Below are positions 4,570-28,414 of a stretch of DNA of 36,535 nucleotides, one piece after another. The stretch is taken from the sequence record DRR723986_1300; one strand, written 5' to 3'. The notes beneath the pieces were generated by a model. It was not told where the DNA came from. It saw nothing but the letters and a program-made list of their open reading frames with translations, and did not search any database. Within the stretch, counting starts at the first letter, position 1. Every line of letters begins with the position of its first letter. A program made the position numbers and the translations under genes.

Positions 4570-4576
4570 CCAGTGG

Positions 4577-5170
4577 ATGGATATTGACGTCCCGCTGCGG
4601 GAGCTTGGCGCTTACGATATAGGGCCTCTGCAGGAAGCTATCCTGGGCCTCGGACCCGAGGCCTGGGCGGATCCATTCCGCCAACAGACCTACGATGTGC
4701 ACCACAATACCGAGTCGGTACTGATGGTGTTTACCGACGGCAGCGGCTGGCCCGATATCGAAATCCGCAAGGAGGCGGGCTGGGACCTGCTGGCGGACGC
4801 GGCCCTGCCGCTGATGCACCAGATCCTTGCCGACCACTACCCGCCGGGTGGAACCATTATCCGCGCAGTCGCGGCCAGGCTGGTGCCGGGTGGTGTGATC
4901 AAGCCGCATCGGGATACGCATCCCTCATTCCATTATGGGCATCGCATCCATATCCCGATTTCCACCAACTCCCGGGTGCGTTTCATCATCGACGGCCGGC
5001 CCTATCGCTTCGAGATCGGTAAGGTTTACGAGATCAACAACCAGTTGCAGCACAGTGTCAGCAACAAGGGCGGCGAAGCGCGGATCACCTTCATTTTCGA
5101 CTACATCCCGCCGCAGAAGCTGCAGGAAATGGCGGCGCTGCCGGGACGCGAGGCGAACCAGACCGCATGA
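4577..5170 (+). CDS. Aspartyl/asparaginyl beta-hydroxylase-domain protein (Fe/2OG cupin)
   Basis: IKPHRD (HxD), HRIHIP, EINNQLQHSVSN, RITFIFD. Start moved to ATG 4577, 7 nt after the TBDR stop. Confidence 0.8.
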   Translation: MDIDVPLRELGAYDIGPLQEAILGLGPEAWADPFRQQTYDVHHNTESVLMVFTDGSGWPDIEIRKEAGWDLLADAALPLMHQILADHYPPGGTIIRAVAARLVPGGVIKPHRDTHPSFHYGHRIHIPISTNSRVRFIIDGRPYRFEIGKVYEINNQLQHSVSNKGGEARITFIFDYIPPQKLQEMAALPGREANQTA

Positions 5171-8046: not shown

Positions 8047-10053
8047 TCAGCGGTTAATCGCCTCGTACTGGGCATAGCGTGGCAGGATGGGCTGCAGGAT
8101 CTCCTGCAGTTCCTCCAACTCGCTCGCATAGCGCCGCCAGCTGTTGATCGCCCCGGTGTAGATTGGCTGGCGCACCTGCTCTGAACTGGCGGTGCGCACC
8201 GGGCGATCAGTTTCGTGAAAGTTGAGGCAGGCGTCCTCCCAGGGGAGTTCGCAGAAGTCCAGGATGCGCCGCACCTGGCTTTCCAGATCGAGCACCGTGT
8301 CTTCGTACTGCACGCGCAGCACCTTGCCCGGCAGTACCTCATCCCAGTGATCCATCAGGCGGTGATACTCCAGGCAGTATTCACCGATGTCGGCGATGTC
8401 GTAGGTAAAGTGCTGGCCCTTGGCGTAGAGCTGCTTGAGGTTGCCCAGGCAGGCATCCATGGGGTTGCGGCGGGCGTCGATAATCTTCGCGTTGGGCAGG
8501 ACCAGGTGGATGAGGCCCACGCTGGGAAAGTTATTGGGCATCTTGTCGATGAAGCAGGGCTTGCCCTCAACCCGGTGCATCCGCGCCCAGCCGAGGTAGT
8601 CGCTGCCCATGCGGTCGAAGTGCTCATCTGGCAGCTCACGCACGGCCTCCGGGTAATTCACCCCACCGACCCGGTTGCGATTGAGGCCGGCGGACAGGCG
8701 CCCGATATAGGGCAGTTCGCTGGTACCCTCCACCCGTGAATGGCTGGCGAGAATCTGCTCGGTCAGGGTCGAACCGGAGCGGGGCATGCCGAGAATGAAG
8801 ATCGGCGCGCTGTCCGGGTTACCGACGCCGGACCGGGTCGCCAGGAACTCGCGGCTGAACACCTCGATGATAGCGTCGTTCAACACCTCGGTGCGCACCG
8901 GGTCGTAGTTCACCAACTGGCGCTGCTTCTCATTGCCGAGCTGGTAGTGCTGCCAGGCCTGCTGGCTGTCCTTGCGGTCCTCGAAGGCCTTGCCCAGGGC
9001 GAAATAGAAGTTCACCTCGGACTGGGGCTCGAGGTCGCCGCCGGCCAGGCGCTCCTGCATCTGCGCCAGCTCGCTGTCGCTGAAGCTGTAGGTCTTGAGG
9101 TTGGCCATGCTCCAGTAAATCTCGCCGTTTTCCGGGCGCTGCTCGATACAGCGCCGGTAGGCCTCGATCGCTTCCTGCTGCCGGCCCACGGTTTTCAGGG
9201 CATGGCCCAGGCCGAGCAGGGCGCCGGCGTGATTCGGCTTCAGCGCCAGGCAGCGTTGCTGCGCTTCGACCGCGCGTTCGTTCAGGGCGGCCTGCGACAG
9301 GACGCCCGCGAGCAGGAAATGGGCCTGGGCGTTGTCAGGTGTGTTCTCGATAACCTTCTCGAAACAGCCGATGGCCTCGGTCCAGCGGTCCTGGTCCTTG
9401 TACAGGTTGCCGAGGTCGAGCAGGGCGAGGTTGTAGTCCGGCGCCAGGCCGGTAACCCGCTCGAGCAGCATTTCTGCGTCTTCGATCTTGCCCGCCCCGG
9501 CGGCGATCAATGCCAGCAGGCGCATGGCATCGACGTTATTGCGCTCACGCTGCAGGATCCGGCGGCAGATCCCCTCGGCTTCCTCCAGCCGGCCCTCCCG
9601 GTGCGCCTGGGCGGCCCGCGCCAGTTCGTGGCGCTCGGGGGCGAGGGCAAAGGCTTTCTCGTAGGCGTCATCGGCCTCCTTGCCGCGACCGCACATCGCC
9701 AGCGCCTTGCCGAGGTGGAACCAGGCGGATTCCAGCTCCTGGTCCAGGCGCACGGCCTTTTCCAGCAGTGGGATCGCTTCCTCCGCGCGTTGCAGGCCGA
9801 CCAGCAGCATGCCCAGGTCCTCGTGGGGCTTGGCGAAGGTGGGGGCCAGGTCGATGGTCTTGCGCAGCAGTTTCTCCGCCTCGCGGGGCTGGCGCAGCTG
9901 AATATGGATAGCGCCGCTCAGGCCGAGGATATTGACGTCGCCGGGACTGCGCTGCAGGGCCCGGTTGCAGGTTTCCAGTGCCTGTTGCGGTTGGCCTTCG
10001 CCCAGCAGGCGGATGGCTTGTTCAAAGGTTGCGCGGGAGGCTTCCAGCGGCAT
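8047..10053 (-). CDS. TPR-repeat sulfotransferase-domain protein
   Basis: About 380 aa of TPR helices followed by ILGMPRSGSTLTEQIL (5'-PSB), FIDKMPNN and TASSEQVRQPIY. Confidence 0.9.
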   Translation of the reverse strand: MPLEASRATFEQAIRLLGEGQPQQALETCNRALQRSPGDVNILGLSGAIHIQLRQPREAEKLLRKTIDLAPTFAKPHEDLGMLLVGLQRAEEAIPLLEKAVRLDQELESAWFHLGKALAMCGRGKEADDAYEKAFALAPERHELARAAQAHREGRLEEAEGICRRILQRERNNVDAMRLLALIAAGAGKIEDAEMLLERVTGLAPDYNLALLDLGNLYKDQDRWTEAIGCFEKVIENTPDNAQAHFLLAGVLSQAALNERAVEAQQRCLALKPNHAGALLGLGHALKTVGRQQEAIEAYRRCIEQRPENGEIYWSMANLKTYSFSDSELAQMQERLAGGDLEPQSEVNFYFALGKAFEDRKDSQQAWQHYQLGNEKQRQLVNYDPVRTEVLNDAIIEVFSREFLATRSGVGNPDSAPIFILGMPRSGSTLTEQILASHSRVEGTSELPYIGRLSAGLNRNRVGGVNYPEAVRELPDEHFDRMGSDYLGWARMHRVEGKPCFIDKMPNNFPSVGLIHLVLPNAKIIDARRNPMDACLGNLKQLYAKGQHFTYDIADIGEYCLEYHRLMDHWDEVLPGKVLRVQYEDTVLDLESQVRRILDFCELPWEDACLNFHETDRPVRTASSEQVRQPIYTGAINSWRRYASELEELQEILQPILPRYAQYEAINR

Positions 10054-10061
10054 CTGTCATC

Positions 10062-10709
10062 TCAGTCCGGTGCGAAGTGGCGGGGAAATACGGCGGCAAA
10101 GTAATCATGGCTGAGCCGCTTGCCCAGCTGCCGGTCGACGGCACGGGGTGACACCAGAATATCAAGCCACAGCCCGGTGGCAAGCGCGGTATAGGAGCGC
10201 ACAATGACCTTGCTGTTAACCCGGGTGTAGCCGCCCTCGGCGATCAGTGCATCACAAATGGCCTCGAGGGTTTCATCCACGGCGGTTTCGTGGGCCGAAC
10301 AGATTTTCTGGTAGGTGGGTCGGGCCTTGCTCTCGCCCATGAACGCGAACCACACCGCCAGCTTGTTGCGATCACAGATCCGGCTGCTGAAATCGAAGTC
10401 GATACAGGCCTGCAGGCGGCTGGCGTTATCGAGGTCCTCGCGCTGGCCGATTTTTCGCCAGCCGTCCACGTACTCTTCGCTGATCGAGCGCAGGGTCTCT
10501 TCCAGCAGCTTTTCCTTGCTCTGGAAGTGCAGGTTGACGATCCCCAGGCTGAGCCCGGCCTCGCTGGTGATATCGGCCATGGTGGTGCCGGACAGACCGG
10601 CGCGGGCGATGCAGGCGATGGTGGCCTGGATCAGCTGTTGGCGGCGGGCTTTCTTGGCTTCCTCGCGGTTTGCCGGCTTGGCGCGAGGCCTGGTCTGGGT
10701 CGTTGCCAT
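10062..10709 (-). CDS. TetR family transcriptional regulator (BetI-like)
   Basis: RRQQLIQAT...TTMADITSEAGLSLGIVNLHFQSKEKL helix-turn-helix; BetI-type C-terminus (W..F, GLWL); divergent from the catabolic operon. Confidence 0.9.
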   Translation of the reverse strand: MATTQTRPRAKPANREEAKKARRQQLIQATIACIARAGLSGTTMADITSEAGLSLGIVNLHFQSKEKLLEETLRSISEEYVDGWRKIGQREDLDNASRLQACIDFDFSSRICDRNKLAVWFAFMGESKARPTYQKICSAHETAVDETLEAICDALIAEGGYTRVNSKVIVRSYTALATGLWLDILVSPRAVDRQLGKRLSHDYFAAVFPRHFAPD

Positions 10710-10768: not shown

Positions 10769-10788
10769 AAATGAATGAGTATTCATTC
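10769..10788. promoter_or_regulatory. Palindromic operator AAATGAATGAGTATTCATTC in the divergent tetR/operon region
   Basis: 18/20 identical to 2114-2133; lies between the tetR start (10709) and the operon start (10850). Confidence 0.8.
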
Positions 10789-10849
10789 AGATATAGACAA
10801 AGCCGGGGCGGGCGTGGCATCCTGCCCGAGTTCTCTCGCTGGACGAATA

Positions 10850-12469
10850 ATGATGAAGAAGTACGATGCGATTGTGATCGGGGCCGGACACAATGGCCTG
10901 GCCAACGCCGCTTACCTCGCCAAGGCCGGCCTGGATGTGCTGGTGCTGGAGCGGAACGGCTATATCGGCGGGGCTACGGTCAGCCGTGAACTCCACCCGG
11001 ACTGGAAATACTCCAACTGTTCCTATGTCTGCAGCCTGTTGAGGCCGGAGATCACCCGCGACCTGGAACTGCCACGCCACGGGTTGCAGGTCGTACCCTA
11101 CGGGGGCGGCGTGACCTTCATGCAGAATGGCGACCACTTCGGCAACTATCACGATCACGAGCGCCAGCGGCGGGAAATTGCCCGCCACTCGCTGCGCGAC
11201 GCCAATGCCTACGAGCGCTACGAGGCGGATGTCTCCAAGCAGACCCGCCTGATCCGGCCCTTCCTGATGCGTACCCCGCCGGACCCGACATCGCTGAAAC
11301 CACGCGACCTCAAGGAACTACTGACCCTGGCCCGCGCCTTTACCGAGTTGGGCGAGCAGGGGCTGTCCGACACTCTGCGCTTCTGGACCGCGAGCATCGG
11401 TGATTTTCTCGATGAGTACTTCGAGACCGACGTGATCAAGGCGCACCTGGGCGGTAGCGGCATTATCGGCACGGCACTGGGGGTCTACTCCCCGGGTACG
11501 GCCTACGTCCTGCTGCACCATTACATGGGTGACGTCGATGGCACGGTCGGCGCCTGGGGTTTTGCCCGCGGCGGTATGGGCGCGGTAGCGGCAGCGCTGG
11601 CCGCCTCGTTCCAGTCCTTCGGTGGCGAGATTCTGTGCGATGCCGATGTTGACCAGATCACGGTTCGCGACGGTCGCACCACCGGCGTGGCATTGAAAGA
11701 CGGGCGTGAACTGAAGGCCGACATCGTGGTATCCAACCTCGACCCGAAGCGCACCTTCCTCGACATCATGGATGCGGGCGACCTGCCGGCGGACGTGGTG
11801 CACAAGGCCAGGAACTTCAAGATTCGCGGCTCCTCCGGCAAGGTCAATATCGCCCTCGATGGGCTGCCGACCTTCAACGGCCTGGACCAGAACAGCCCGC
11901 TGATGGTCGGCGATATGCACTTCAGCGACTCGCTGGAGCGGATGGAGCGCGCCTACGACGATTGGAAAAACGAGACCTGGTCGAAAGACCCCTACCTGGA
12001 CATGCTGATCCCGACCCAGGTGGACCCGACCATGGCGCCCCCGGGCAAGCACATGATGACGGTGTTTGTGCAGTACGCGCCGCCCAAGGTGAACGGTGGC
12101 GAGTGGACTGACGAGGACCGCGACGCCTTCGGCAAGACGGTGATCGACCAGATCGCCCGCTACAGCCCCGATTTCAAGGACCTGATCCTGCACGCCGAGG
12201 TGCGTACCCCGCGCGAGCTGGAAAACGAGGTAGGCCTGACCGAGGGCAACATCTTCCAGGGTGAGCTGACTTTCGATCAGCTGTTGTTCAACCGCCCGTT
12301 CCCCGGTTACGCCCAGTACCGCGGCCCGGTGAAGGGTATGTACATGTGCGGCTCCGGCACCCACCCGGGTGGCGGCGTGATGGCCGCACCGGGCGCCAAC
12401 GCGGCGCGGGAGATCCTGATGGACCTGAAGCTTGCCAATACCGTGCCCGGAGGATACGCCGATGACTAA
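10850..12469 (+). CDS. COG1233 FAD-dependent oxidoreductase (phytoene dehydrogenase superfamily, PYROXD2-like), subunit 1
   Basis: YDAIVIGAGHNGL, SLLRPEI..DLEL.RHGL, GTAYVLLHH.MG...GAWG...GGMG, YMCGSGTHPGGGV. Start is ATG 10850 or 10853; the ORF-track start at 10775 lies inside the operator. Confidence 0.88.
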   Translation: MMKKYDAIVIGAGHNGLANAAYLAKAGLDVLVLERNGYIGGATVSRELHPDWKYSNCSYVCSLLRPEITRDLELPRHGLQVVPYGGGVTFMQNGDHFGNYHDHERQRREIARHSLRDANAYERYEADVSKQTRLIRPFLMRTPPDPTSLKPRDLKELLTLARAFTELGEQGLSDTLRFWTASIGDFLDEYFETDVIKAHLGGSGIIGTALGVYSPGTAYVLLHHYMGDVDGTVGAWGFARGGMGAVAAALAASFQSFGGEILCDADVDQITVRDGRTTGVALKDGRELKADIVVSNLDPKRTFLDIMDAGDLPADVVHKARNFKIRGSSGKVNIALDGLPTFNGLDQNSPLMVGDMHFSDSLERMERAYDDWKNETWSKDPYLDMLIPTQVDPTMAPPGKHMMTVFVQYAPPKVNGGEWTDEDRDAFGKTVIDQIARYSPDFKDLILHAEVRTPRELENEVGLTEGNIFQGELTFDQLLFNRPFPGYAQYRGPVKGMYMCGSGTHPGGGVMAAPGANAAREILMDLKLANTVPGGYADD

Positions 12470-14024
12470 GTATGACGTGGTCGTGGTCGGTGGTGGCCAC
12501 AACGGTCTGGTATGCGCGGCCTACCTGGCGAAAGCCGGGCGCAAGGTGCTGGTGCTGGAAGCGAATGCGATCGCCGGTGGCGGCGCCAGCACCCGCGAGT
12601 TCGCGCCCGGGTTTTCGGTATCGGGCTGCGCCCACTGGCTCTACCAGCTCAACCCCGAGGTGGCGGCTGACCTCGCGCTGGACAGGCATGGCCTGTCCTA
12701 CGCAGCCCGCGACCTGGACACTATCGGCCTGGCGGCGGATGGCAACTGCGTTACCGTGGGTGCCACGGGCATCAGCGGCGCGTCCCTGTCGAACAAGGAC
12801 CACGCGGCGTTCGGCCCGTTCCAGGCCCGGATGACCCGGTTCGCCAAATTCCTGGCCAATGCCTACAAGCGGCGGGCGCCGAAGCTGGTAGATGCCGACC
12901 TGCACGACCGGTTCACCCTGCTGAAGATGGGGTTGGACATGAAACTGCTGGGCAGGGAAGACATGCAGCAGCTGATGCGCCTGGCCCTGATTAATACCTA
13001 TGACGTGCTCAACGAGACCTTCGATGACGAGCACCTCAAGGGCGTGCTGAGCCTTGATGGTGTGCTCGGTGCCCATATGGGCCCGCGCTCACCCAACACG
13101 GTGTTTGGCTACATGTATCGCCGCCTGGGCGAGGTTTATGGCTTTAACGGCCCGGCCCAGGTCAGCGGCGGTATGGGCCAGCTCGCCGAGGCCATGGCCA
13201 GCGCTGCGAAAGCGAGCGGTGTGGAAGTGCGCACCGGTGCGCGGGTTGCCAGCATCGATCTGGATGCGGACAGCGCGACCGGGGTGACCCTGGAGAGTGG
13301 CGAGCGGATTGAGGCCGGGACCGTGGTCTCGGCTGCCGACCCCAAGACGACCTTCCGCGACCTGGTGGGCTATCGCAACGTAGAGGCCGGCACCAGCCGC
13401 CGGGTACACAACATCCGCATGCAGGGTAATGCCGCCAAGTTGCACCTGGCGCTGGACGGGCTGCCGGAATTTGCCGGGCTCAGCGCCGATCAGCTGGGCC
13501 AGCGACTGGTGATTGCCCCGAACATGAAGTACGTCGATAACGCCTTCAACCATGCCAAGTACGGCGAGTACTCGACCGCGCCGATCATGGATATCAGTAT
13601 CCCGACGGTGAACGACCCGGGTCTGGCCCCGGCTGGCAAGCATGTGCTGTCCGCCATCGTGCAGTTCGCACCCTATGCGCTGCGCGAGGGTTGGGACACC
13701 GGCAAAGCCGCGTTTGAGCGGATCTGCCTGGATACCCTGGGGCAGTACGCTCCCGGACTGGAGGCGCTGGTCACGGCCTCCGAACTGCTGACCCCGGTGG
13801 ACCTGGAAGCTGAGTTCAACATGGCCGGCGGACACTGGCACCACGGCGAGATCGCCCTGGACCAGATCATGATGATGCGTCCGTTCTACGGCGCTACCCA
13901 GTACGCCACCCCGGTGGACAACCTGTACCTGTGCAGTGCTGGCTCGAACCCCGGCGGGGGGCTCATGGGACTGGCCGGCCGCAATGCCGCCAGGGAGATT
14001 ATCAAGAGGGGGAAAGCCGCATGA
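12462..14024 (+). CDS. COG1233 FAD-dependent oxidoreductase, subunit 2
   Basis: YDVVVVGGGHNGL, GGMGQL, GGHWHHGE, LYLCSAGSNPGGG; GGAGGA SD before ATG 12462; 8-nt overlap with the upstream gene. Confidence 0.88.
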   Translation: MTKYDVVVVGGGHNGLVCAAYLAKAGRKVLVLEANAIAGGGASTREFAPGFSVSGCAHWLYQLNPEVAADLALDRHGLSYAARDLDTIGLAADGNCVTVGATGISGASLSNKDHAAFGPFQARMTRFAKFLANAYKRRAPKLVDADLHDRFTLLKMGLDMKLLGREDMQQLMRLALINTYDVLNETFDDEHLKGVLSLDGVLGAHMGPRSPNTVFGYMYRRLGEVYGFNGPAQVSGGMGQLAEAMASAAKASGVEVRTGARVASIDLDADSATGVTLESGERIEAGTVVSAADPKTTFRDLVGYRNVEAGTSRRVHNIRMQGNAAKLHLALDGLPEFAGLSADQLGQRLVIAPNMKYVDNAFNHAKYGEYSTAPIMDISIPTVNDPGLAPAGKHVLSAIVQFAPYALREGWDTGKAAFERICLDTLGQYAPGLEALVTASELLTPVDLEAEFNMAGGHWHHGEIALDQIMMMRPFYGATQYATPVDNLYLCSAGSNPGGGLMGLAGRNAAREIIKRGKAA

Positions 14025-15208
14025 ACGCTCGCAACCGCTCCATGGAAATGATGCTGCGAACCCCGTTTCACAGCCGCGTTGCACAGGCCTGTGAAACCAA
14101 CGACTGGTATGGCTGGAAGGGTTACACCACTCCCAACAGCTACACCGATGTGGAACTGGAATACTTCGCCATCCGCAATGCCTGCGGTGTGTTCGACCTG
14201 TGCCCGATGATCAAGTACCGGATCACCGGTCCCGATGCCGAGGCTTACCTCAACCGCCTGGTGACCCGCGATGTGAGCAAGCTGCGGGTCGGCCGTGTGG
14301 GTTATACGGTGTGGTGCGATGACGCCGGTCAGGTGCTCGACGATGGCACCTTGTTCCACCTGGGCGAAAACGATTACCGGCTGTGTTCCTATACCCATGT
14401 TCTGGACTGGCTGTGCTGTTCAGCGCTGGGCTTTGATGTCTCGGTGGTTGATGAGACCGCCGAGGTGGCGGCGCTGTCGTTGCAGGGGCCAACCAGCTGC
14501 TCTGCGCTGCGGGCGCTGGGCCTGGAAGGTATCGGCGAACTCAAGCCTTTCGGCCTGATGGACTTCAGCTTCGAGGGCAAGCCCCTGATGGTGAGCCGCA
14601 CCGGCTTTACCGGCGACCTGGGCTACGAACTGTGGATTGAGGCCGGCAGTGCGGAAGCGCTGTGGGACGCCCTGTTTGCCGCCGGCGCACCTTATCTTAT
14701 CAAGTGTGTTGGCGCCGAGGCCTATGACCTGGCGCGCATCGAGGCGGGTTTCCTGCAGGCGGGGGTGGACTTCGTGCCCTCCGAGGAGACCGTCCGCATC
14801 GGCCGTGGCAGTTCACCCTTCGAGCTGGGCCTCGACTGGCTGGTGGATCTCGACAAGCCGGTGTTCAACGGACGCAAGGCCCTGCTCGCCGAGAAACAAC
14901 GCGGACCGGCCAAGCGTATCGTGATGCTGGACGTCGAAGGCAACAAGCCGGCAATGCACTCCTTTGTTTACTCGGGCAAGAAGCAGGTGGGAACGGTGAC
15001 CTCCGCCGCCTGGTGCCCGACTATCAAGTCTAACTTTGCCATCGCCTCGGTCGACGCGGCCTACAGCGCGCCGGGTACCGAGCTGGTGGCGGAAATCTAT
15101 TATCAACGGGAACTGCACTGGACCCGGTTGATGGCCAGCTGCAAGGTGTTGGACGCTCCTCTGTTCAATCCGCCGCGCCGCCGCCAGACGCCGGCTCCGG
15201 CCTTCTAG
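14021..15208 (+). CDS. GcvT-like aminomethyltransferase (folate-binding) family protein
   Basis: LRTPFH, EYFAIRNACGVFDL, DDGT, LQGP, SRTGFTGDLGYELW, ARIEAG, GTVTS; ATGA overlap fixes the start at 14021. Confidence 0.9.
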   Translation: MNARNRSMEMMLRTPFHSRVAQACETNDWYGWKGYTTPNSYTDVELEYFAIRNACGVFDLCPMIKYRITGPDAEAYLNRLVTRDVSKLRVGRVGYTVWCDDAGQVLDDGTLFHLGENDYRLCSYTHVLDWLCCSALGFDVSVVDETAEVAALSLQGPTSCSALRALGLEGIGELKPFGLMDFSFEGKPLMVSRTGFTGDLGYELWIEAGSAEALWDALFAAGAPYLIKCVGAEAYDLARIEAGFLQAGVDFVPSEETVRIGRGSSPFELGLDWLVDLDKPVFNGRKALLAEKQRGPAKRIVMLDVEGNKPAMHSFVYSGKKQVGTVTSAAWCPTIKSNFAIASVDAAYSAPGTELVAEIYYQRELHWTRLMASCKVLDAPLFNPPRRRQTPAPAF

Positions 15209-15250: not shown

Positions 15251-16633
15251 ATGAAACCGGATTCAAGCCAGGAGCTGGCGGACTTTCTGCTCCGCCACCC
15301 CGAAACGACCATGCTGGAAGTGCTGATGGTCGATATGAACGGGATTCCTCGCTGCAAGCGTATCCCGCGCGGAGAGTTTGAAGCGCTGTTCCGCGGCGAG
15401 CTGAGCACCTGTGCGGCCACCCCACTGTGCAACACCCTGGGTACCATCATCGAGGACATCGGCCGCGGAACCGCGGACGGTGATCCCGATGGGCCATTGG
15501 TCGTGGTGCCGGGCACGCTGGCGCCGATACCCTGGCTGGCCTCGAACACCGCTCAGGTGCTGGCAAGCTTTCGCGAGGAAGACGGCAGTCCCAGCGCCAT
15601 CGACCCGCGCTGTATCCTGCAGAACGTGCTGGACCGTTTTGCCACTCTTGGCCTCAAGCCGGTGGTCGCCACGGAGCTTGAATTTTACCTGCTGGAGCCC
15701 GGCGAGGCAGACCGGCCCTCCCTGCGCCTGGGCCTGGTGCCGGGTACCGGCCTGCGTCAGGAAGGCGCCCAGTACGCCATGCCGGAAGACCTCTGGGACA
15801 ATGACGCGTTTCTCGAGGACATGCGCACCACTTCGGCACTGCAGGGCATCCCGATGACCACAGTGCTGTCGGAGTTTTCCCCCGGCCAGTTTGAAATCAA
15901 CCTGCACCACGTGGATGACCCGGTCCAGGCCTGCGACCACGCGGTGCTGCTCAAACGTGCGGTCAAGGGCACTGCCCGCCAGCACGGTCTCGGCTCTACC
16001 TTCATGGCCAAGCCGTTTCAGGATATCGCCGGCAGTGGCCTGCATATCCATATCAGCCTGTACGACCAGGACGGCAACAATATCTTCGCCGATCCCGCTG
16101 CCACCAGTGCCCCCGGCCTGACGGACCGGATGCGGCACGCGGTCGGTGGCCTGGCGGCAACCATGGGCGACGCCATGGCGATCTTCGCTCCCAATGCGAA
16201 CTCCTATCGCCGGCTGATCCCGGATAATTTTGCTCCCCTGACCCCTAACTGGGGCTACAACCACCGCTGCGTGTCGCTGCGCGTCCCGGTGTCCAGTCCG
16301 GAAAACCGCCGTATTGAACACCGCACGGCGGGTGCCGATGCCAATCCCTATCTGGTGATGGCGGCGGTACTGGCCGGTATCCAGTACGGCCTCGAACACC
16401 AGTGCGACCCGGGCCGCATGGTGCAAGAGGGCGAGGAAATCAAAGAAGGCCCGGCGACGCTGCCGCGCTACTGGCCGGACTCGCTGAACACCTTTGAAGC
16501 CAGCGACTTTTCCCGTGACCTGCTCGGTGCCGATTTTCATCGGCTGTTCACCACCATCCGGCGCCAGGAGTGCGAGGAGTTCGCGGCGACCATAGCCGAC
16601 CTCGATTACCGCTGGTACCTGCGGTCTGTTTAA
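15251..16633 (+). CDS. Glutamine synthetase-like gamma-glutamyl-amine ligase (PuuA/PauA-like)
   Basis: DMNG, TELEFYL, EFSPGQFEINL, TFMAKP, GSGLHIHISL, NSYRRL, RIEHRTAGADANPYL; amine-catabolic gene context. Confidence 0.85.
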   Translation: MKPDSSQELADFLLRHPETTMLEVLMVDMNGIPRCKRIPRGEFEALFRGELSTCAATPLCNTLGTIIEDIGRGTADGDPDGPLVVVPGTLAPIPWLASNTAQVLASFREEDGSPSAIDPRCILQNVLDRFATLGLKPVVATELEFYLLEPGEADRPSLRLGLVPGTGLRQEGAQYAMPEDLWDNDAFLEDMRTTSALQGIPMTTVLSEFSPGQFEINLHHVDDPVQACDHAVLLKRAVKGTARQHGLGSTFMAKPFQDIAGSGLHIHISLYDQDGNNIFADPAATSAPGLTDRMRHAVGGLAATMGDAMAIFAPNANSYRRLIPDNFAPLTPNWGYNHRCVSLRVPVSSPENRRIEHRTAGADANPYLVMAAVLAGIQYGLEHQCDPGRMVQEGEEIKEGPATLPRYWPDSLNTFEASDFSRDLLGADFHRLFTTIRRQECEEFAATIADLDYRWYLRSV

Positions 16634-16645
16634 AGAGAAACTGTC

Positions 16646-17908
16646 ATGACCACCACCATTGCCACTGACGTCGACGATTCCCCTGAGCGGATGAAGGCCA
16701 AGGCCAGCGCCCAGAAGCAGCGGCCCGGTTTTGCCATCGACCCCTATTTTTACCGCTCGCACGTCACCTTCGAAAAGGAACTGGACACCATCCTGTTCCG
16801 CAGCTGGCTGTATGCTGGCCACGTGAGCCAGATACCCGAGCCCGGTGATTTCCTGCAGTACGAGCTCGGCGAGGACGCGATCATCATCAGTCGCGACCTT
16901 GAGGGCGACGTGCAGGCCCAGTTCAACATCTGCCGTCATCGCGGCGCCCGGGTCTGTGAGCAGGCCCAGGGCAATACGCGGACCTTCGTCTGCCCGTATC
17001 ACGGCTGGGTCTATAACCTGGACGGCAGTCTGCGAGCGGCGCGGGAGATGGAAGTCCTGGAGGGTTTCGACCCGTCGGCCTACGGCTTGAAGAAGCCGCA
17101 GCTGGTGGTGTTCCATGGGCTGATTTTTGTTAACTGCGATCCGCAGGCGGCACCCTTCGAGCCGGACCTCGCCCTGATCGAACCGGCGCTGGCGGGTTAT
17201 GACCTGGCGCATGCGAAAGTGATCGACAGCCGCACCTACCGGGTAGGCGCCAACTGGAAGCTGGCCCTGGAAAACTACCTTGAGTGCTACCACTGCGCCA
17301 CCGCGCACCGAGCCTACGCCAAGATGCATACCCTCAAGGAACCCTATTGCCAGGTCGAGGGGATCAACGAGGCGATGCTGGCCCGGGCGGAGCAGCAGAC
17401 CGGGGTGTCGGGGCTTACCACCGATCTCTACCAGGTGTATGGCTATGCACCGCACCACGGAGGCGGCACCTACACCAGTCGCTATGCCCTGTACGACGGG
17501 TTCGTGACCGGCAGCGAGGATGGCCAGCCGGTGGCGCCGCTGATGGGTGACTACACGGGCTACGACGGCGGCGCCGGTGATTTCCAGTTCGGTCCGCTGA
17601 CCTTCATGCTCAATTACCCGGACCACTGCGTGCTGTACCGATTTACCCCGCGCGCGCTCAATCACACGGATATGGAGATCGTCTGGTACGTGCGCGGCGA
17701 TGCGGTGGAAGGGGTTGATTACGATGTGGACAAGATCACCTGGCTCTGGCATCGCACCACGCTCGAAGACGAGTTCATCATCACCCGCAACAGCGCGGGG
17801 GTGAATTCGCGCTTCTTTGAACCAGGCCCTTACCACCCGGAGCACGAGAAGAACAGCATCGACTTCGTGGACTGGTATCTCGACTGCCTGATCGATGAGG
17901 ATCTATGA
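16646..17908 (+). CDS. Rieske non-heme iron oxygenase alpha subunit (GbcA/Stc2/choline monooxygenase-like)
   Basis: CRHRG...CPYHGW Rieske ligands; NWKLALENYLECYHCATAH mononuclear Fe site. Confidence 0.9.
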   Translation: MTTTIATDVDDSPERMKAKASAQKQRPGFAIDPYFYRSHVTFEKELDTILFRSWLYAGHVSQIPEPGDFLQYELGEDAIIISRDLEGDVQAQFNICRHRGARVCEQAQGNTRTFVCPYHGWVYNLDGSLRAAREMEVLEGFDPSAYGLKKPQLVVFHGLIFVNCDPQAAPFEPDLALIEPALAGYDLAHAKVIDSRTYRVGANWKLALENYLECYHCATAHRAYAKMHTLKEPYCQVEGINEAMLARAEQQTGVSGLTTDLYQVYGYAPHHGGGTYTSRYALYDGFVTGSEDGQPVAPLMGDYTGYDGGAGDFQFGPLTFMLNYPDHCVLYRFTPRALNHTDMEIVWYVRGDAVEGVDYDVDKITWLWHRTTLEDEFIITRNSAGVNSRFFEPGPYHPEHEKNSIDFVDWYLDCLIDEDL

Positions 17909-19194
17909 CGCATCCCGCTGATGTGCAGCCGCATACCGGTTCCTATTATGCGGCAACGCTAAACGACGACACCCGCTACCCACCGCTGGCGGGAGAGACG
18001 CGCGCGGACGTCTGCGTTATCGGCGGTGGATTTTCCGGGGTTGCAACCGCACTGACGCTGGCCGAGCGCGGGTACTCGGTGGTTCTGCTGGAGCAGCACC
18101 GGATTGGCTGGGGTGCCTCCGGGCGCAACGGCGGCCAGCTCATTGGCGGGGTGTCAGGCGCTGACAAACTGGTAGCCGAACACGGACCGGCCGTAGCCGA
18201 CATGGTCTGGGATATAGGCTATCGCGGCCATGCCATCATCGAGCAGCGTATTGAACAGTATGCGATCGACTGCGACTTCAAACACGGTTATATCGACGTC
18301 GCGATCAAACCCCGGCATATGCGCGATTTTGAGGCGCACTTCGAAGAACTGCAGCGACGCGGCTTCGGCGCCGACGCCCGACTGGTGCCGCGCGAGGAAA
18401 TCGGGAGTGTGCTGGGCACGCAGGCCTACATTGGTGGCCTGATCAATAATCGCAACGGCCACTTGCACCCGCTCAACCTCTGCGCCGGCGAAGCCCGCGC
18501 AGCAGCGAGTCTCGGCGCCCGCCTGCACGAGGGCAGCCCGGTCACCGGGATTGTTCACGGCAGCAAGCCGGTGGTACAAACCGCTACCGGGCAGGTAGTC
18601 GCCGAGTCCGTGGTACTGACCGGCAACGCTTACAATCGGCTCGAGCGCCAGCGCCTGCCGGGCCAGGTGTTTCCCGCCGGCAGTTTCATCATCGCCACCG
18701 AACCGCTGAGCGAGGCGGAAGCAGCGCAGATCAACCCGCTGGACCTCGCCGTCTGCGACCCGAACTTCGTGCTCGATTATTTCCGGCTCAGTGCCGACCG
18801 GCGCATGCTGTTCGGCGGCCGCTGCAACTATTCCGGCCGCGAGCCCCGCAGCATCAAGGCCGACATCCTGCCGCGCATGCTGAAACTCTACCCCGGCCTT
18901 CGCGGCAAGCAGATCGACTACGAGTGGGGTGGCAACATCGGCATCGTGGTTAACCGGGTGCCACTGTTCGGGCGCATCGCCCCCAACGTCTTTCACGCCA
19001 CCGGCTATTCCGGGCACGGCGTCAATGTGACCCATGCCGCCGGCGAGATCATGGCCGACGCGATCGCGGGCACCATGGAGCGGCTCGATATTTTTGAGCG
19101 CATCAGCCACAGCAAAATTCCCTTCGGCCAGACCTTCGGCAACCAGATCTTGGCCCTTGGCATGTTGTATTACCGGCTCAGGGATCTTCTCTGA
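17905..19194 (+). CDS. FAD-dependent amine oxidoreductase (PuuB/DadA-like)
   Basis: SYYAAT, DVCVIGGGFSG, GASGRNGGQ, HLHPLNL, DYFRLSADRRMLFGG, GYSGHGV; ATGA overlap. Confidence 0.88.
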   Translation: MTHPADVQPHTGSYYAATLNDDTRYPPLAGETRADVCVIGGGFSGVATALTLAERGYSVVLLEQHRIGWGASGRNGGQLIGGVSGADKLVAEHGPAVADMVWDIGYRGHAIIEQRIEQYAIDCDFKHGYIDVAIKPRHMRDFEAHFEELQRRGFGADARLVPREEIGSVLGTQAYIGGLINNRNGHLHPLNLCAGEARAAASLGARLHEGSPVTGIVHGSKPVVQTATGQVVAESVVLTGNAYNRLERQRLPGQVFPAGSFIIATEPLSEAEAAQINPLDLAVCDPNFVLDYFRLSADRRMLFGGRCNYSGREPRSIKADILPRMLKLYPGLRGKQIDYEWGGNIGIVVNRVPLFGRIAPNVFHATGYSGHGVNVTHAAGEIMADAIAGTMERLDIFERISHSKIPFGQTFGNQILALGMLYYRLRDLL

Positions 19195-19259
19195 GTTCGG
19201 CTCTAATCCCATCGTGTCGGGGGCGGCAATTCCTTGCCCCAGGCCGCAGGAGACAGGTG

Positions 19260-20456
19260 ATGACACAGGCAACGCAGAACCAGGACAGTCGCGATTACCA
19301 CGTGCTCGATCGGGCGGAGCCCGCGCTGCCCAGCGCCTGGTATTACGATCCTGAGCATTACCGGCGCGAGCTGGCAGCGGTCTGGAACCGGCACTGGGTG
19401 TACGGCTGTCACAGCAGCGCGCTGACCGAGGTCGGCAGTTACCAGACCCTGTCGATTGGCGACCAGAATGTCTGGGTTGTGCGCACCGAGGGCGGCGGGG
19501 TCGCTGGCTATCACAACACCTGCCGTCACCGCGGCTCGATCCTGTTGACCGAGCCGCAGGGCAAGCTGGCGACGGGCTCGGTGTCCTGCCCCTACCACCG
19601 CTGGCGCTATGACATCGGTGATGGCAGCCTCATCGCCATCTCCTCCTATGACGAACCGGCGGGTTTCGAGCGCTGCGAGCACAGCCTGTTCCCGGTTGCC
19701 GTACACCAGTGGCGCGGCCTGATTTTCGTCAACATCGATCCGGCAGCGCAGTGGGATGCGGACGCGGTGTTTGACCCGCTCTGGCAGGACATCAATGCCC
19801 TGCCGATCGAAGACTGGGTCCTGGGTCGCCAGTGGAGCAAGACCCTGGCCTGTAACTGGAAAACCTTCTGGGATAACTACGGGGAGTGCCTGCATTGCCC
19901 CGGCGTGCACCGTGACCTGTCGCGGCTGGTGCCCATTTTCAAGCGCGGTCTGCTCGGTCCGCAGGACCTGCCGGACTGGCAGCAGCATGTCGACAACCCC
20001 GATCCATCGTTTCGCGGCGGACTGCGTGAGGGGGCGGAAACCTTCTCCATGGATGGCAGCGCCCAGGGCTATGCCAATACCGAGGGTCTGTCGGAGGCTG
20101 CTCGGCGACGCGGCGTGACCTATGCGACGGCGTTTCCCTCGGTGTACATCGGCGCGCACGCGGATCATGCGCGGATCGTGCACATCCGCCCGCTGGGACC
20201 CGAGCTGACCGAGATGTCGGTGGACTGGTTGTTCCAGCCGGCGGCGCTGGCGGACCCGGATTACGACATCGACAACGTCACCGACTTTATCAAGCAGGTG
20301 CTGGAAGAGGACGGCCAGGTCTGCGAGCTCAACCAGCGCGGCCTGCATGCGGCGCCGATGGAGCGCGGCGTGCTGATGCCTGAAGAATATGAACTGAAAG
20401 GCTTCAGGGACTGGCTATTGGCCACCCTGCAACAAGCCGACAACACAACGGATTAA
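19260..20456 (+). CDS. Second Rieske oxygenase alpha subunit (quaternary/methylated-amine oxygenase group)
   Basis: CRHRG...CPYHRW; NWKTFWDNYGECLHCPGVH; ED..VCELNQRGL; AGGAG SD at 19248-19252 (start ATG 19260 or GTG 19257). Confidence 0.9.
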   Translation: MTQATQNQDSRDYHVLDRAEPALPSAWYYDPEHYRRELAAVWNRHWVYGCHSSALTEVGSYQTLSIGDQNVWVVRTEGGGVAGYHNTCRHRGSILLTEPQGKLATGSVSCPYHRWRYDIGDGSLIAISSYDEPAGFERCEHSLFPVAVHQWRGLIFVNIDPAAQWDADAVFDPLWQDINALPIEDWVLGRQWSKTLACNWKTFWDNYGECLHCPGVHRDLSRLVPIFKRGLLGPQDLPDWQQHVDNPDPSFRGGLREGAETFSMDGSAQGYANTEGLSEAARRRGVTYATAFPSVYIGAHADHARIVHIRPLGPELTEMSVDWLFQPAALADPDYDIDNVTDFIKQVLEEDGQVCELNQRGLHAAPMERGVLMPEEYELKGFRDWLLATLQQADNTTD

Positions 20457-20461
20457 TAGCT

Positions 20462-21838
20462 ATGACGATTCTCAAACTGGATACGGAAGCCATCAAGCGC
20501 AAGGACCAGGCGCACTTTCTCCACCCCTGGCAGGAATTCGACAGCTTCGAGGAAGACGGCGCGCTGGTCATTGCCCGCGCCCAGGGTGCTCATGTTTATG
20601 ACAGTGACGGCAAGCGCTACCTCGACGGTATCGGCGGCATGTGGTGTGTCAATGTCGGCTACGGCCGCAAGGAAATCGCAGCGGTCATGGCGGAGCAGGC
20701 GGAACGGCTGCCTTACTACTCGACCTTCACCGACACGACCAATGTGCCGGCGGTGCAACTCGCCACCAAGCTGGCGTCCCTGGCACCGGGCTCGATCAAC
20801 CACGTGATGTATTCCTGCAGCGGGTCGGCGGCGGTCGATTCCGCAATCCGCCTGGTGCACTACTATTTCGGCCGTCGCGGACAGCCGGAGAAGAAGCACA
20901 TCATTGCGCGCAACTCCGGCTACCATGGCAGCACCTACCTCGGGATTTCCCTGACCTCCCGGCCCAGTGGTTACACGGACTACTTCCACTACATCAACGA
21001 CTTCATTCACCATATCCGCGCCCCGAACCCCTACCGGCGCCCGGATGGGATGTCGCTGGAGGCGTTTACCGATTCGCTGCTGGCGGAGTTCGAGGACAAG
21101 GTCGCCGCCATCGGCGCGGACAAGGTTGCCGCATTTATCGCTGAACCGATCCAGGGCTCCGGCGGGGTGATCGTGCCGCCGCCGGGTTACCTGCAGCGCA
21201 TTCGCAAGCGCTGCAGTGAGCTGGACATCCTGTTCATTGCCGACGAAGTGGTTACCGCCTTTGGCCGGGTGGGGCATATGTTCGCCTCCGTGGATGAGTT
21301 TGGCATCCAGCCCGACATCATCACCGTGGCCAAGGGCCTGACCTCGGGGTATATCCCGCTGGGGGCGACCCTGTTCTCGGAAGAGATATTCGATGTCATT
21401 AGCGCTACCGGTGAGGAGGCCTGCTTCGAGCACGGCTTTACCTACTCAGGACACCCGGTTGCCTGCGCGGTGGCGCTGAAGAATATCGAGATCATCGAGC
21501 GCGAGCAGATCTGCGAACATGTGCGTGAGACCGGCGAGTATTTCGAGCAGCAGCTCAAGACCCTGCTGGACCTGCCCCACGTGGGCGATGTGCGCGGTCG
21601 GCGCTTCATGATGTGCGTGGAATACGTGGCCGACAAGGAGACCCGGGAACTGCTGCCGGATGAGTTCAACGTGTCCAAGCGTATTGCCGATGCCTGCGAG
21701 GCCCACGGGGTGTTGGTGCGGCCGATAGGCCATCTCAATATCCTCTCGCCCCCGCTGACCCTGACCCGCGAGGAAATCGATACCCTGGTGCGAGTTTTAC
21801 GGGAAAGCGTACTTGAGGTGGAGTCGCTGCTAAACTGA
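20462..21838 (+). CDS. Class III omega-amine aminotransferase (SpuC/BioA-like)
   Basis: HFLHP, YLDGIGGMWCVNVGYGR, YHGST, EPIQGSGGV, DEVVTAFGR, AKGLTSGYIPLG, HGFTYSGHP. Confidence 0.92.
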   Translation: MTILKLDTEAIKRKDQAHFLHPWQEFDSFEEDGALVIARAQGAHVYDSDGKRYLDGIGGMWCVNVGYGRKEIAAVMAEQAERLPYYSTFTDTTNVPAVQLATKLASLAPGSINHVMYSCSGSAAVDSAIRLVHYYFGRRGQPEKKHIIARNSGYHGSTYLGISLTSRPSGYTDYFHYINDFIHHIRAPNPYRRPDGMSLEAFTDSLLAEFEDKVAAIGADKVAAFIAEPIQGSGGVIVPPPGYLQRIRKRCSELDILFIADEVVTAFGRVGHMFASVDEFGIQPDIITVAKGLTSGYIPLGATLFSEEIFDVISATGEEACFEHGFTYSGHPVACAVALKNIEIIEREQICEHVRETGEYFEQQLKTLLDLPHVGDVRGRRFMMCVEYVADKETRELLPDEFNVSKRIADACEAHGVLVRPIGHLNILSPPLTLTREEIDTLVRVLRESVLEVESLLN

Positions 21839-21940
21839 CGCTTACTCCCGCTGCCGGGGCGGGCCGGTTAGCACCGGCCGGCTGTCGGTGAGCGATCCTA
21901 TTTCACTGCAAACAGGGGAACCGCGGTGACCGAAGGAACC

Positions 21941-23212
21941 ATGTCGCTCCACCATGAAAAGACCGTCTTCGACGGTTGGCGCTCCCTGTCCCTGTCTCTG
22001 TATATGACCCTGATCGGCTACGGCCTGCTGGTTGGCATCCCGGTTATCAGCACGGCCTGGGTGACGCTGCTGGGTTTCTCCGAAGTGGAAGTGGGTCGGG
22101 TGGCTGGCGCTGACCTTGGGGGCCTGTCATTGGGAGCCGTGGTGACCGCACTGCTGATTGCGCGGGTAAACCGGCGCCTGCTGGTGTTGGCATCGGTTGT
22201 CATCGCCGTCGGGGCCAATGCCCTGTGTATGGTGATGGTGGATTACGAGCAGGTGCTCTGGCTGCGCCTGCTGGCGGGTTTTGGCAGCGGTATCTATACC
22301 GCGGTGGCGGTGGCGACGCTTGGCGCCAGCAGTAAGCCCGCCCGCGCCTACAATATGATGTTGTTTGCCTTCGCTTTCTCCCAGGCCCTGGAGCTGCACT
22401 TCCTCCCGCAGTTGACGATGAATGGCATCTACCTGGTGTTTATCTGCTGCTACCTCGTCAGCCTGCCGTTTCTGGCCTGGCTGCCGCCGCGTCCGGTAGA
22501 AAAAGCGCTGGACGTCGAACTGGATGTGGAGGAGCAGGGCGGCGCACATCATATTGAGCACGTGCATATTCCCGCCCATGTGCCCTGGCTCTGCCTGGGC
22601 GCAATTACGTTCACCTATATCAACATCGGCGCTTACTGGACCTATATCGAGCTGGCGAGCGCGGGTTCTCCAGCCGATCCTGACTGGGTGGGCTCGGTAC
22701 TGGTCTGGGCGTCCTTTATGAGCCTCGTCGGTTGCCTCGTGGCCACGATCATCAGCAACCGCTGGGGCCTGGCCCGACCGCTGCTGGTGACCCTGGTCGC
22801 GCATGCAAGTGTGGTGGGCATGCTGGCGCTGGGCATTACCAATACCAGCATTTTTATCAGCGTATTTATGTTCAATTTCCTGTGGATCTTTATCGACGTG
22901 TACCAGATGTCGACCATTGCCACCGTGGATCATTCCGGCCGCTTTGCTTCGCTGATGCCGGCGGCTCAGGGCTTGGGCCAGATTATCGGCCCGAACGTCG
23001 CTGCGGGTATCCTCGCAGCCGGGCTGGGCTATAACGCCGTGTTTATCATGTGCGCGCTGGCATCGCTCACCGGGATGCTGATCTACTTCTGGATGTACAT
23101 CCGCCTCAGCCGGGCGATACCCGACCTGGCCCATGCCTCTGCCGCCGCGCACGGGGCGGCGGCAATTTCAGGCGGTACCCCGGTGCTGGACCGCCCGGTC
23201 GAAGTATCCTGA
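21941..23212 (+). CDS. Major facilitator superfamily transporter
   Basis: About 12 hydrophobic segments, LRLLAGFGSG motif; start ATG 21941 (AAGGA SD) or GTG 21926. Confidence 0.85.
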   Translation: MSLHHEKTVFDGWRSLSLSLYMTLIGYGLLVGIPVISTAWVTLLGFSEVEVGRVAGADLGGLSLGAVVTALLIARVNRRLLVLASVVIAVGANALCMVMVDYEQVLWLRLLAGFGSGIYTAVAVATLGASSKPARAYNMMLFAFAFSQALELHFLPQLTMNGIYLVFICCYLVSLPFLAWLPPRPVEKALDVELDVEEQGGAHHIEHVHIPAHVPWLCLGAITFTYINIGAYWTYIELASAGSPADPDWVGSVLVWASFMSLVGCLVATIISNRWGLARPLLVTLVAHASVVGMLALGITNTSIFISVFMFNFLWIFIDVYQMSTIATVDHSGRFASLMPAAQGLGQIIGPNVAAGILAAGLGYNAVFIMCALASLTGMLIYFWMYIRLSRAIPDLAHASAAAHGAAAISGGTPVLDRPVEVS

Positions 23213-23563: not shown

Positions 23564-23998
23564 GTGAACCTTACCAACCTGACCTTGACCCTGTTTGCCT
23601 GCTTTGCGATCGGGTTTCCCCTGTGGGCGATGCAGACCAATGATTACGATGGGCGCGACAACCACGGCTGCTCCGGCGAATGCTATGAGAACTGGAAGGC
23701 GGAAACCGGTGGTGTGGTGGCCCTGGCCTCGGCGGCCGCTGCGGCGCGGGCTGAAGCCTCACCCGAGGAACTGGGCAAGCAAGCGTATGCCGGCTGCGTT
23801 GCCTGTCATGGCGCTGGCGGTGAAGGGGGCGTTGGGCCGCAGCTGGCCGGTCAGGCAGTGGCGACTATCGCCGACAAGCTGGGCCGCTACAAGGCAGGTG
23901 AGACGCTCGGTACCCAGAGCCCGTTGATGTGGAGCCAGGCAGCGCAGTTGAGCGATGCCGACATCGATAATCTGGCGGCTTATATCGGAACCTTGTAA
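23564..23998 (+). CDS. Monoheme c-type cytochrome (c553/c4-like) with N-terminal extension
   Basis: N-terminal hydrophobic segment, CVACH heme motif, GPQLAGQ, distal Met (LMWSQA), LSDADIDNLAAYI; GGGAGA SD. Confidence 0.9.
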   Translation: MNLTNLTLTLFACFAIGFPLWAMQTNDYDGRDNHGCSGECYENWKAETGGVVALASAAAAARAEASPEELGKQAYAGCVACHGAGGEGGVGPQLAGQAVATIADKLGRYKAGETLGTQSPLMWSQAAQLSDADIDNLAAYIGTL

Positions 23999-26549: not shown

Positions 26550-26687
26550 AGTCAACACCAAATCTCGAAGCCCAGAAGTGTTTAAGTCTAGCACTTAGTC
26601 CCGATTTGGGTGAGGCATGGCGGAAAGGTCAGATTTGGCCCTGGATGGATCCCCGCCGGGTTATTGCAGAGGAGCAGGACGGGGGTT

Positions 26688-28274: not shown

Positions 28275-28414
28275 GGAGCGGCTCCGGGGTAGGTCAGCTG
28301 GTAAACCGGCAGGCCTATATTGCAGCTTGCACGGTCGGCGGGCAAGCAAGCGCTGGCGCTGTAAGTGACTCCCCGGCTGGCCTATAGTGCGCCTTTTAAC
28401 GGCGGATTGTTGTT

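Follow-up and report, generated by a model that had tools for sequence, protein, structure and literature searches.

What reaction is carried out by two flavoproteins related to human PYROXD2 whose genes overlap each other and a gene for a folate-binding protein? This question is raised by three genes, here called A, B and C, on the forward strand of a 36,535-nucleotide stretch of DNA from a marine bacterium (sequence record DRR723986_1300; the whole stretch is referred to as the window). Judging from homology, gene order and neighboring genes, we propose that the A-B-C trio encodes a split, tetrahydrofolate (THF)-linked oxidative N-demethylase for an imported methylated amine, a reading to which we assign a probability of roughly 0.55.

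Overlapping genes A, B and C form a conserved and duplicated unit

Gene A (10850-12469, +) encodes a PYROXD2-like flavin adenine dinucleotide (FAD) flavoprotein of 539 residues and has an alternative ATG at 10853. Gene B (12462-14024, +) encodes a paralogous PYROXD2-like flavoprotein of 520 residues, and gene C (14021-15208, +) encodes a stand-alone folate-binding protein of the GcvT fold with 395 residues, which matched the Pfam domains GCV_T and GCV_T_C. The Pfam Amino_oxidase domain spanned the whole length of both A and B, which were found to be 34% identical to each other (E 6e-90). An earlier reading made from the letters alone (the sequence-only reading) had described two paralogous flavoproteins and a GcvT-like protein in three overlapping forward-strand genes, and the domain matches, the coordinates and the overlap letters all agreed with it: the stop of A and the start of B share the 8 nt ATGACTAA, and the stop of B and the start of C share the 4 nt ATGA. 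In relatives of the locus, the 8-nt A/B overlap recurred in 72 of 86 pairs and the 4-nt B/C overlap in 56 of 75, counts in which the choice of start codon was biased toward starts near the expected position and in which five of the 86 A/B pairs were artefacts, the best B match being the A gene itself. The same reading had noted a window devoid of carotenoid, GcvP and GcvH genes; accordingly, a Pfam scan of all plausible-gene open reading frames (ORFs) of at least 180 residues and a few shorter ones revealed none of these domains, and a GcvH of about 130 residues could escape such a scan, as ORFs below 180 residues were only partly covered.

No RNA run containing window positions 10850-15208 was listed. 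A scan of one genome per species revealed no fewer than 587 stretches that encode relatives of A, and the best 80 loci (79-88% identity to A, median 82%) were analyzed. These loci were labeled as marine Cellvibrionales-type Gammaproteobacteria, with a few bins labeled otherwise, and comprised the SAR92/Porticoccaceae, Halieaceae/OM60, HTCC2080, OM182 and Pseudohongiella groups. We found B downstream of A in 78 of the 80 loci, the remaining two stopping at a contig edge, and C downstream of B in 70. Of the ten remaining loci, nine ended before there was space for C, and in the tenth (L042) the first 85 residues of C were cut by a run of N. A was the most conserved subunit across the 80 loci, while B showed identities of 49-77% (median 60%) and C a median identity of 67%.

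The unit was also found to be duplicated as a whole. In the genome of Candidatus Seongchinamella marina IMCC8485 (G001), which contains one of the 80 loci (L051), three A-B-C trios lie inside 26 kb, each with its own C, and pairwise identities grouped the trios as (window, 1) and (2, 3) alike for A, B and C. Two other genomes (G002 and G003) each contained one extra trio in the order B-A-C.

An even sample of 401 Pseudomonadota genomes contained 45 with a match at E <= 1e-50, G386 included. An A-type gene (58-81% identity) was present in 11 of the 401, and B and C were adjacent to it in all 11. We fetched 20 of the other 34 genomes, the PYROXD2-like genes of which are solo genes that were 37-42% identical to A and were not selected as the nearest kin of PYROXD2. 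None of these 20 had a B paralogue beside it; a GcvT-like gene was present within 8 kb in a single case, and a Rieske gene was nearby in five. The solo genes, being without B and mostly without GcvT, therefore indicate that the folate link is a trait of the A/B clade and not of the whole PYROXD2-like group. Taken together, the conserved order, the overlaps, the duplication of the unit and the missing link in solo genes make the A-B-C association strong and specific.

The trio also occurs in cultured bacteria, namely Shinella zoogloeoides ATCC 19623, Ensifer adhaerens, Rhizobium sp. SL42, Parasedimentitalea marina W43 and Fuscovulum ytuae. In cultured Alphaproteobacteria, the unit, with a TetR gene beside A-B-C, resides on plasmids or chromids, where the adjoining genes encode a 678-residue NADH:flavin oxidoreductase of the TMADH/DgcA type, a Rieske oxygenase, a Pot-type importer and an aminotransferase.

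Protein C resembles a folate module

The top family match of C was the C-terminal half of the trimethylamine-N-oxide demethylase Tdm (271 bits, model positions 381-760 of 763), and its Pfam GCV_T match scored 199 bits. C remained below the cut-offs for GcvT (211 bits against 300 for PRK00389 and 160 bits against 235.85 for TIGR00528), DmdA (148 against 410) and SoxA (138 against 1164). C is not a complete Tdm either, as its match covers only positions 381-760 of the model, and no Pfam match to DUF1989 (PF09347) was found in it. Among solved structures, the closest relative was Paracoccus Tdm (9q5a, 186 bits), T proteins came next, and the folate domains of DMGDH and DMGO (4p9s/5l46 and 1pj5) scored 83-95 bits. 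Relatives of the window locus encode a separate, stronger GcvT-type gene elsewhere (285 bits to PF01571, in a frame of about 400 residues).

According to the accessible part of the Tdm report (PMC13619132), the Tdm folate domain binds THF and converts channelled formaldehyde to methylene-THF, and the folate contacts given there are R480, F582, F672 and K782. Upon alignment with Tdm, R83, F177 and W273 of C corresponded to R480, F582 and F672 (positions counted manually on the alignment), and K782 fell beyond the C alignment; all three alignable contacts among those given there are thus kept in C. In the 43 relatives compared, D59, R83 and F177 were invariant, and the position of W273 was occupied by W in 37 and by F in five. 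We take the D59 position to be that of the functional Asp of the T protein. With these residues, C looks like a working folate module. The last 12 codons of C encode a conserved basic tail (consensus PPRRRQTPAPxF in the 43 relatives) that could contact the polyglutamate tail of folate or a partner subunit.

DmdA is a stand-alone GcvT-family enzyme, and the match of C to the DmdA model brings up a different role, in which C would be an independent DmdA-like methyltransferase passing an onium methyl group directly to THF, with A and B oxidizing the carbon skeleton of the same substrate in a shared pathway and without a complex. In keeping with this, about a third of the loci have acyl-CoA genes beside the trio (an ADP-forming acyl-CoA synthetase at 26 and an acyl-CoA dehydrogenase at 30 of 90 loci), which suggests a carboxylic-acid skeleton requiring further oxidation. 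However, C lies far below the DmdA cut-off and is nearer to both Tdm and GcvT, and genes that merely share a pathway are not usually linked by so strict an A-B-C order, by overlaps and by co-duplication. We consider this role for C to be quite improbable.

Flavoproteins A and B belong to the PYROXD2-like group

A search with A against 1.84 billion cluster representatives yielded 20,936 matches at E <= 0.001, of which 150 representatives were listed. An oyster cluster named PYROXD2 by both NCBI and UniRef ranked 23rd among the 150 listed, and a named 584-residue member of this cluster (P0276) shared 40% identity with A across residues 5-527 (E 2e-127) and 34% with B (E 7e-89). The resemblance of A to PYROXD2, which the sequence-only reading had noted from motifs, is thus borne out over the full length of the protein. 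The nearest clusters in the ESM Atlas were likewise named PYROXD2, which serves as a lead only, and the names of the 120 close relatives of A among the matches listed were all generic.

We constructed a FastTree phylogeny of 143 rows, which included 116 of the 150 listed representatives (full-length, 500-620 residues), three family members from the window, eight sequences from G001 (both members of three A/B pairs plus two solo genes) and four sequences each of eukaryotic origin and of CrtI/CrtD; the tree was rooted on CrtI/CrtD. The tree placed CrtI/CrtD apart from all 139 PYROXD2-like rows with a local support of 100, and the A clade and the B clade were each supported at 100. The eukaryotic PYROXD2 clade (support 99) was nested within other bacterial rows, and the A clade lay outside a 119-row group containing PYROXD2 and B. 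A sister relation of either A or B to animal PYROXD2 was not recovered in this tree, the local supports of which were weak at the deep branches. This placement puts A inside the PYROXD2-like group but does not make it the closest bacterial relative of PYROXD2. The phylogeny against PYROXD2 and CrtI that had been suggested earlier thus upheld the separation from CrtI/CrtD, and it placed PYROXD2 in another bacterial sub-clade. A third flavoprotein of the same family is encoded at 26688-28349 (-) in the window (553 residues, Amino_oxidase, 29% identical to A, E 2e-55); it is a solo gene with no adjoining GcvT gene, and in the tree its branch is long and basal in the PYROXD2-like group.

The AlphaFold2 model of A had a mean predicted local distance difference test (pLDDT) score of 84 and a predicted template modeling score (pTM) of 0.87, and it showed the overall three-domain CrtI-type fold. 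The top solved fold was CrtD (4rep; template modeling scores by query, TMq, 0.76 and by target, TMt, 0.83), followed by CrtI and then by the amine oxidases MAO, NicA2 and putrescine oxidase (TMq 0.52-0.60); structures of the DAO family were absent among the fold matches listed. In agreement with this, the DAO profile PF01266 matched only the N-terminal Rossmann stretch of A (residues 6-43) and residues 5-47 of B as its best stretch, plus a second short one, so that neither protein was a full-length match to the DAO family, and Amino_oxidase (PF01593) matched both over their full length. The only internal stretches of the A model with a pLDDT below 50 were residues 230-234 and 461-467, the columns of which were largely invariant across 44 A sequences (D230, G231, G234 and G462-N467, with V461 nearly so); in the model, these may be loops that become ordered only with cofactor, substrate or partner.

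These folds, together with the CrtO ketolase as the top NCBIfam model (NF045689; 299 bits for A and 241 bits for B), are what would be expected if A and B were carotenoid or isoprenoid desaturases or ketolases of the CrtI/CrtO type with a GcvT neighbor by coincidence. However, CrtO has a cut-off of 1000, which the scores miss by a wide margin, and those against crtI_fam (TIGR02734; 123 bits for A and 133 bits for B) are below its cut-off of 238.1, so that both proteins fail CrtI/CrtO membership by the curated cut-offs. True CrtI (616 and 596 bits) and CrtD are encoded elsewhere in the G002 and G003 genomes, while the A/B homologues in G001-G003 reach only 78-139 bits against the CrtI model. 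With no crt genes among the scanned window ORFs and with the full local support that separates the 139 PYROXD2-like rows from CrtI/CrtD, a carotenoid role of A and B is nearly excluded, and the grouping with true CrtI that the sequence-only reading had named as fatal to its proposal was not observed.

To compare the two flavoproteins with their family, we examined the 66 columns with a conservation of 85% or more among 119 further members of the family. A keeps 58 and B keeps 59 of these columns, so both look like intact flavoproteins; the idea that B is a degenerate, non-catalytic subunit was rejected on the same counts.

The surrounding operon points to amine catabolism

A gene for a BetI-like TetR repressor (10062-10709, -; Pfam TetR_N and TetR_C_6, BetI-type) diverges from A. 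The repressor scored 101 bits against the NCBIfam BetI model, below the cut-off of 201, and a divergent TetR homologue lay at most 600 nt upstream of A in 59 of the 80 loci. The intergenic region between TetR and A contains the palindrome TGAATGA-N4-TCATTCA (10772-10789) with perfectly complementary arms; the exact pattern was found in 27 of 119 fetched loci, mainly 80-180 nt upstream of A, and we regard it as a candidate operator.

Downstream of the trio are genes for a glutamine-synthetase-like ligase of the γ-glutamyl-amine synthetase type (15251-16633, +; Pfam Gln-synt_C), a GbcA/Stc2-like Rieske oxygenase (Rieske 1; 16646-17908, +; Pfam Rieske and Ring_hydroxyl_A), a DAO-family FAD oxidoreductase resembling PuuB and pipecolate oxidase (17905-19194, +; Pfam DAO, 245 bits), a second, more distant GbcA/Stc2-like Rieske oxygenase assigned by family-profile and solved-relative matches (19257-20456, +), a class-III (ω-)aminotransferase (20462-21838, +; Pfam Aminotran_3) and a major facilitator superfamily transporter (21926-23212, +; Pfam MFS_1). 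The aminotransferase exceeded the cut-off of its NCBIfam model (PRK07036, 719 bits). The ligase matched γ-glutamylputrescine synthetase at 213 bits, under the cut-off, and was present downstream in 36 of the 80 loci; the DAO-family protein matched the pipecolate oxidase model at 197 bits, also under the cut-off, and was present in 20. With 262 bits against a GbcA cut-off of 670, Rieske 1 does not qualify as an equivalog of GbcA. Its top solved relatives were 3n0q, 3vca, 4qup (annotated as a demethylase) and the carnitine monooxygenase CntA, and we take 3vca to be the stachydrine demethylase Stc2.

Clustering of the proteins around the trio at 90 loci revealed TetR at 72 loci, Rieske 1 at 51, parts of a Pot-type ATP-binding cassette (ABC) importer at 32-40, an Asp/Arg-hydroxylase-like protein at 36, the glutamine-synthetase-like ligase at 33, the acyl-CoA dehydrogenase at 30, the ADP-forming acyl-CoA synthetase at 26, the DAO-family flavoprotein at 22, the aminotransferase at 21 and a PuuD-like amidase at 14. 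These predicted functions support amine or methylamine catabolism as the context of the trio, and a suitable substrate would be a polyamine-like or ω-amino compound that is imported and bears N-methyl groups. In SAR92-type loci (L017, 14371-16473, +, and 25 others), the acyl-CoA synthetase, a protein of 700 residues, is encoded between C and the glutamine-synthetase-like gene, and the acyl-CoA dehydrogenase is encoded upstream, which suggests that the substrate skeleton ends as a carboxylic acid there.

Rieske oxygenases also release formaldehyde, and the main rival to a split N-demethylase is that C serves these enzymes. C would then trap on folate the formaldehyde released by the Rieske N-demethylases of this operon, while A and B would carry out some other redox step without one-carbon release, such as oxidative deamination or cleavage at a secondary amine in the manner of a polyamine oxidase. 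A Rieske gene of the GbcA/Stc2/CntA type is indeed present downstream in 52 of the 80 loci and adjoins two of the three trios of G001, and C is nearest to the folate domain of Tdm, which, in the accessible part of its report, captures formaldehyde produced at a separate site. The context is also rich in polyamine functions (the Pot-type importer, PuuA/B/D-like genes and agmatine deiminase), to which the Parasedimentitalea locus adds a deacetylase-family gene and a GNAT gene. However, C tracks A and B and is present wherever a locus has room for it, while several full-length loci (e.g. L058, L050, L056 and L063) have no Rieske gene inside the fetched 10-kb flanks. The frequent 4-nt overlap of C with B (56 of 75 pairs) and the divergence of C paralogues in step with those of A and B likewise argue against such a trap, which we consider rather unlikely.

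A proposed folate-linked N-demethylase

The split N-demethylase reading draws on the linkage, the duplication of the unit, its specificity to the A/B clade, the folate residues of C, the conserved columns of A and B, the amine-catabolic context and the associations of human PYROXD2. According to this proposal, the trio would head an operon controlled by the BetI-like repressor, and the Stc2/GbcA-like Rieske oxygenases would probably take the first methyl group off a quaternary amine. The trio would remove the methyl groups left after this step: the PYROXD2-type flavoproteins, A and/or B, would oxidize one N-methyl group of their substrate, a secondary or tertiary amine, yielding an iminium or formaldehyde equivalent, and the GcvT-fold protein C, presumably in complex with them, would capture the one-carbon unit on THF to give 5,10-methylene-THF. 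This chemistry would be that of the dimethylglycine and sarcosine dehydrogenases, performed by a flavoprotein of the CrtI/amine-oxidase family and with the parts as separate polypeptides. The resulting primary amine would then be processed by the aminotransferase or by the γ-glutamylation enzymes.

Several points weigh against this proposal. We know of no demonstrated reaction for any member of the PYROXD2-like group, and the closest solved folds of A are CrtD (4rep) and CrtI (4dgk), enzymes of a type that works on carotenoid C-C bonds, with the amine oxidases ranking second (TMq 0.52-0.60). The Rieske oxygenases of the operon release formaldehyde, so C could serve them instead, and 19 of the 20 solo PYROXD2-like genes have no GcvT neighbor, so folate coupling is not family-wide. 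An electron-transferring flavoprotein or similar electron acceptor was not seen near the trio. Two apparent flavoprotein-GcvT fusions, the singletons P0321 (910 residues) and P0323 (851 residues) from a search for proteins longer than C, appear to be frameshift read-throughs, in which homology to B is lost around residue 405-452, with unrelated sequence beyond it. P0322 (GcvT plus part of a CoA ligase) is probably a similar artefact.

Carriers of the trio also encode several fused DMGDH-type proteins as well as SoxA/SoxB, so a distinct substrate must be assumed. In particular, the GCV_T-domain frames of G001 comprised five of 814-857 residues and two of about 1000 residues, SoxB was above its cut-off in three of five carrier genomes, and GbcA was above its cut-off in none of the five searched. 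The trio is therefore not simply the dimethylglycine/sarcosine enzyme of these bacteria, and its assignment as a plain demethylase of the glycine betaine pathway is weakened.

A more specific version of the proposal can be formulated, which we find possible but doubtful. In this version, A, B and C would form a heterotrimeric, folate-channelling N-demethylase in which both flavoproteins are catalytic and act on successive methyl groups, tertiary and then secondary, of a Rieske-derived dimethylamino compound, completing the removal of all three methyl groups from a marine nutrient, either a trimethylammonium compound or one resembling a methylated polyamine. Extended to animals, this version would make PYROXD2 an oxidase or demethylase of N-methyl amines, for example of N6-methylated lysines or N-methylpipecolate.

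The link of PYROXD2 to methylated amines and methyl-lysines, which the sequence-only reading had named, was found in print. In the accessible parts of two reports, variants of human PYROXD2 associate with N-methylpipecolate, urinary trimethylamine and dimethylamine, and N2-acetyl,N6,N6-dimethyllysine in metabolite genome-wide association studies (PMC5780481, PMC13352909). The locus is among the strongest metabolite quantitative trait loci, with p = 3e-85 for N2-acetyl,N6,N6-dimethyllysine, and the role of PYROXD2 is given in the same part of this 2026 paper only as mitochondrial (PMC13352909). These associations fit the N-demethylase reading, although indirectly.

We found no characterization of the trio, and among the papers listed none on bacterial PYROXD2 homologues, in the literature searched, which did not extend to supplements and subscription journals. 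To our knowledge, folate-linked oxidative N-demethylation is known only from DAO-family flavoproteins (DMGDH, SARDH, DMGO, SoxBDAG and MABO). If the proposal is true, a split solution based on the CrtI/PYROXD2 family would add an enzyme class, thousands of genes labeled "phytoene dehydrogenase-like" would need re-annotation, and human PYROXD2 would gain a concrete, testable reaction. Trio genes are abundant in marine Cellvibrionales (SAR92, OM60/NOR5 and Porticoccaceae), Tara-derived entries included, and are thus relevant to how methylated amines are turned over in the ocean; the cultured carriers are available for experiments. The observations that are new here are the three-fold co-duplication with matching relationships of A, B and C, the difference between the trio and solo members of the family, the dismissal of the apparent fusions, the finding that A and B retain the family-wide columns equally well, the candidate operator and the list of cultured carriers.

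Other genes in the window

At its start, the window contains the 3' part of an agmatine-deiminase-type gene (2-559, +; PAD_porph), a class-III aminotransferase gene (650-2050, +), a gene for a TonB-dependent receptor (2173-4569, +), which recurs near the trio in 13 of 90 loci, and an Asp/Arg-hydroxylase-like gene (4541-5170, +), which does so in 36 of 90. Two Sulfotransfer_3 genes are present, one fused to a long tetratricopeptide repeat region (8047-10053, -) and the other at 29160-30395 (-); a homologue of the former was located just upstream of TetR and the trio in many Halieaceae loci and in G001. A gene for a cytochrome c of 144 residues (23564-23998, +) directly follows the transporter gene, and a protein of 853 residues with DUF7507 as its sole domain match is encoded at 24033-26594 (-). 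The end of the window (32191-36535, +) is occupied by a Cus/resistance-nodulation-division-type efflux set that consists of an AcrB-family pump truncated by the window end, an outer-membrane factor and a CusB-like adaptor that includes a heavy-metal-binding domain.

Comparison with known systems

We compared the trio with systems of known function. DMGDH (4p9s/5l46), DMGO (1pj5) and SARDH resemble the proposed system in their chemistry, in which a flavin oxidizes an N-methyl group and the one-carbon unit passes to THF in a GcvT-fold module. In these enzymes, however, the flavin domain belongs to the DAO family and shares a single chain of about 830 residues with the folate domain, whereas the trio has two flavoproteins of the CrtI/amine-oxidase family and a separate folate protein. 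SoxBDAG and N-methylglutamate dehydrogenase are multi-subunit, folate-linked N-demethylases with a catalytic flavoprotein and a second Rossmann-type subunit carrying the GcvT-fold module. SoxBDAG differs in that SoxB is of the DAO family, the GcvT module is fused within SoxA and small δ and γ subunits are present, none of which is found in the trio.

With respect to the individual proteins, C has the C-terminal folate domain of Tdm (9q5a) as its top match by family and by solved structure, but Tdm fuses this domain to a catalytic, Zn-containing DUF1989 domain, whereas C has no DUF1989 and is paired with flavoproteins. Compared with GcvT, C is below the equivalog cut-offs, and the partners gcvH and gcvP were not found among the scanned window ORFs. 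Animal PYROXD2 is of the same sub-family as A and B and can be aligned with them end to end, and the human metabolite traits given in the accessible parts of the reports are N-methylated amines; it is an orphan mitochondrial flavoprotein that differs in being encoded by a single gene and extended at the N-terminus, and it is sister to neither A nor B in the tree. Finally, the operon logic is similar to that of the GbcAB-DgcAB-SoxBDAG pathway, with a BetI-type repressor, a Rieske oxygenase for the quaternary amine and flavoprotein demethylases for the tertiary and secondary amines, whereas the aminotransferase, the glutamine-synthetase-like ligase and the Pot-type importer of the trio operon point to another substrate.

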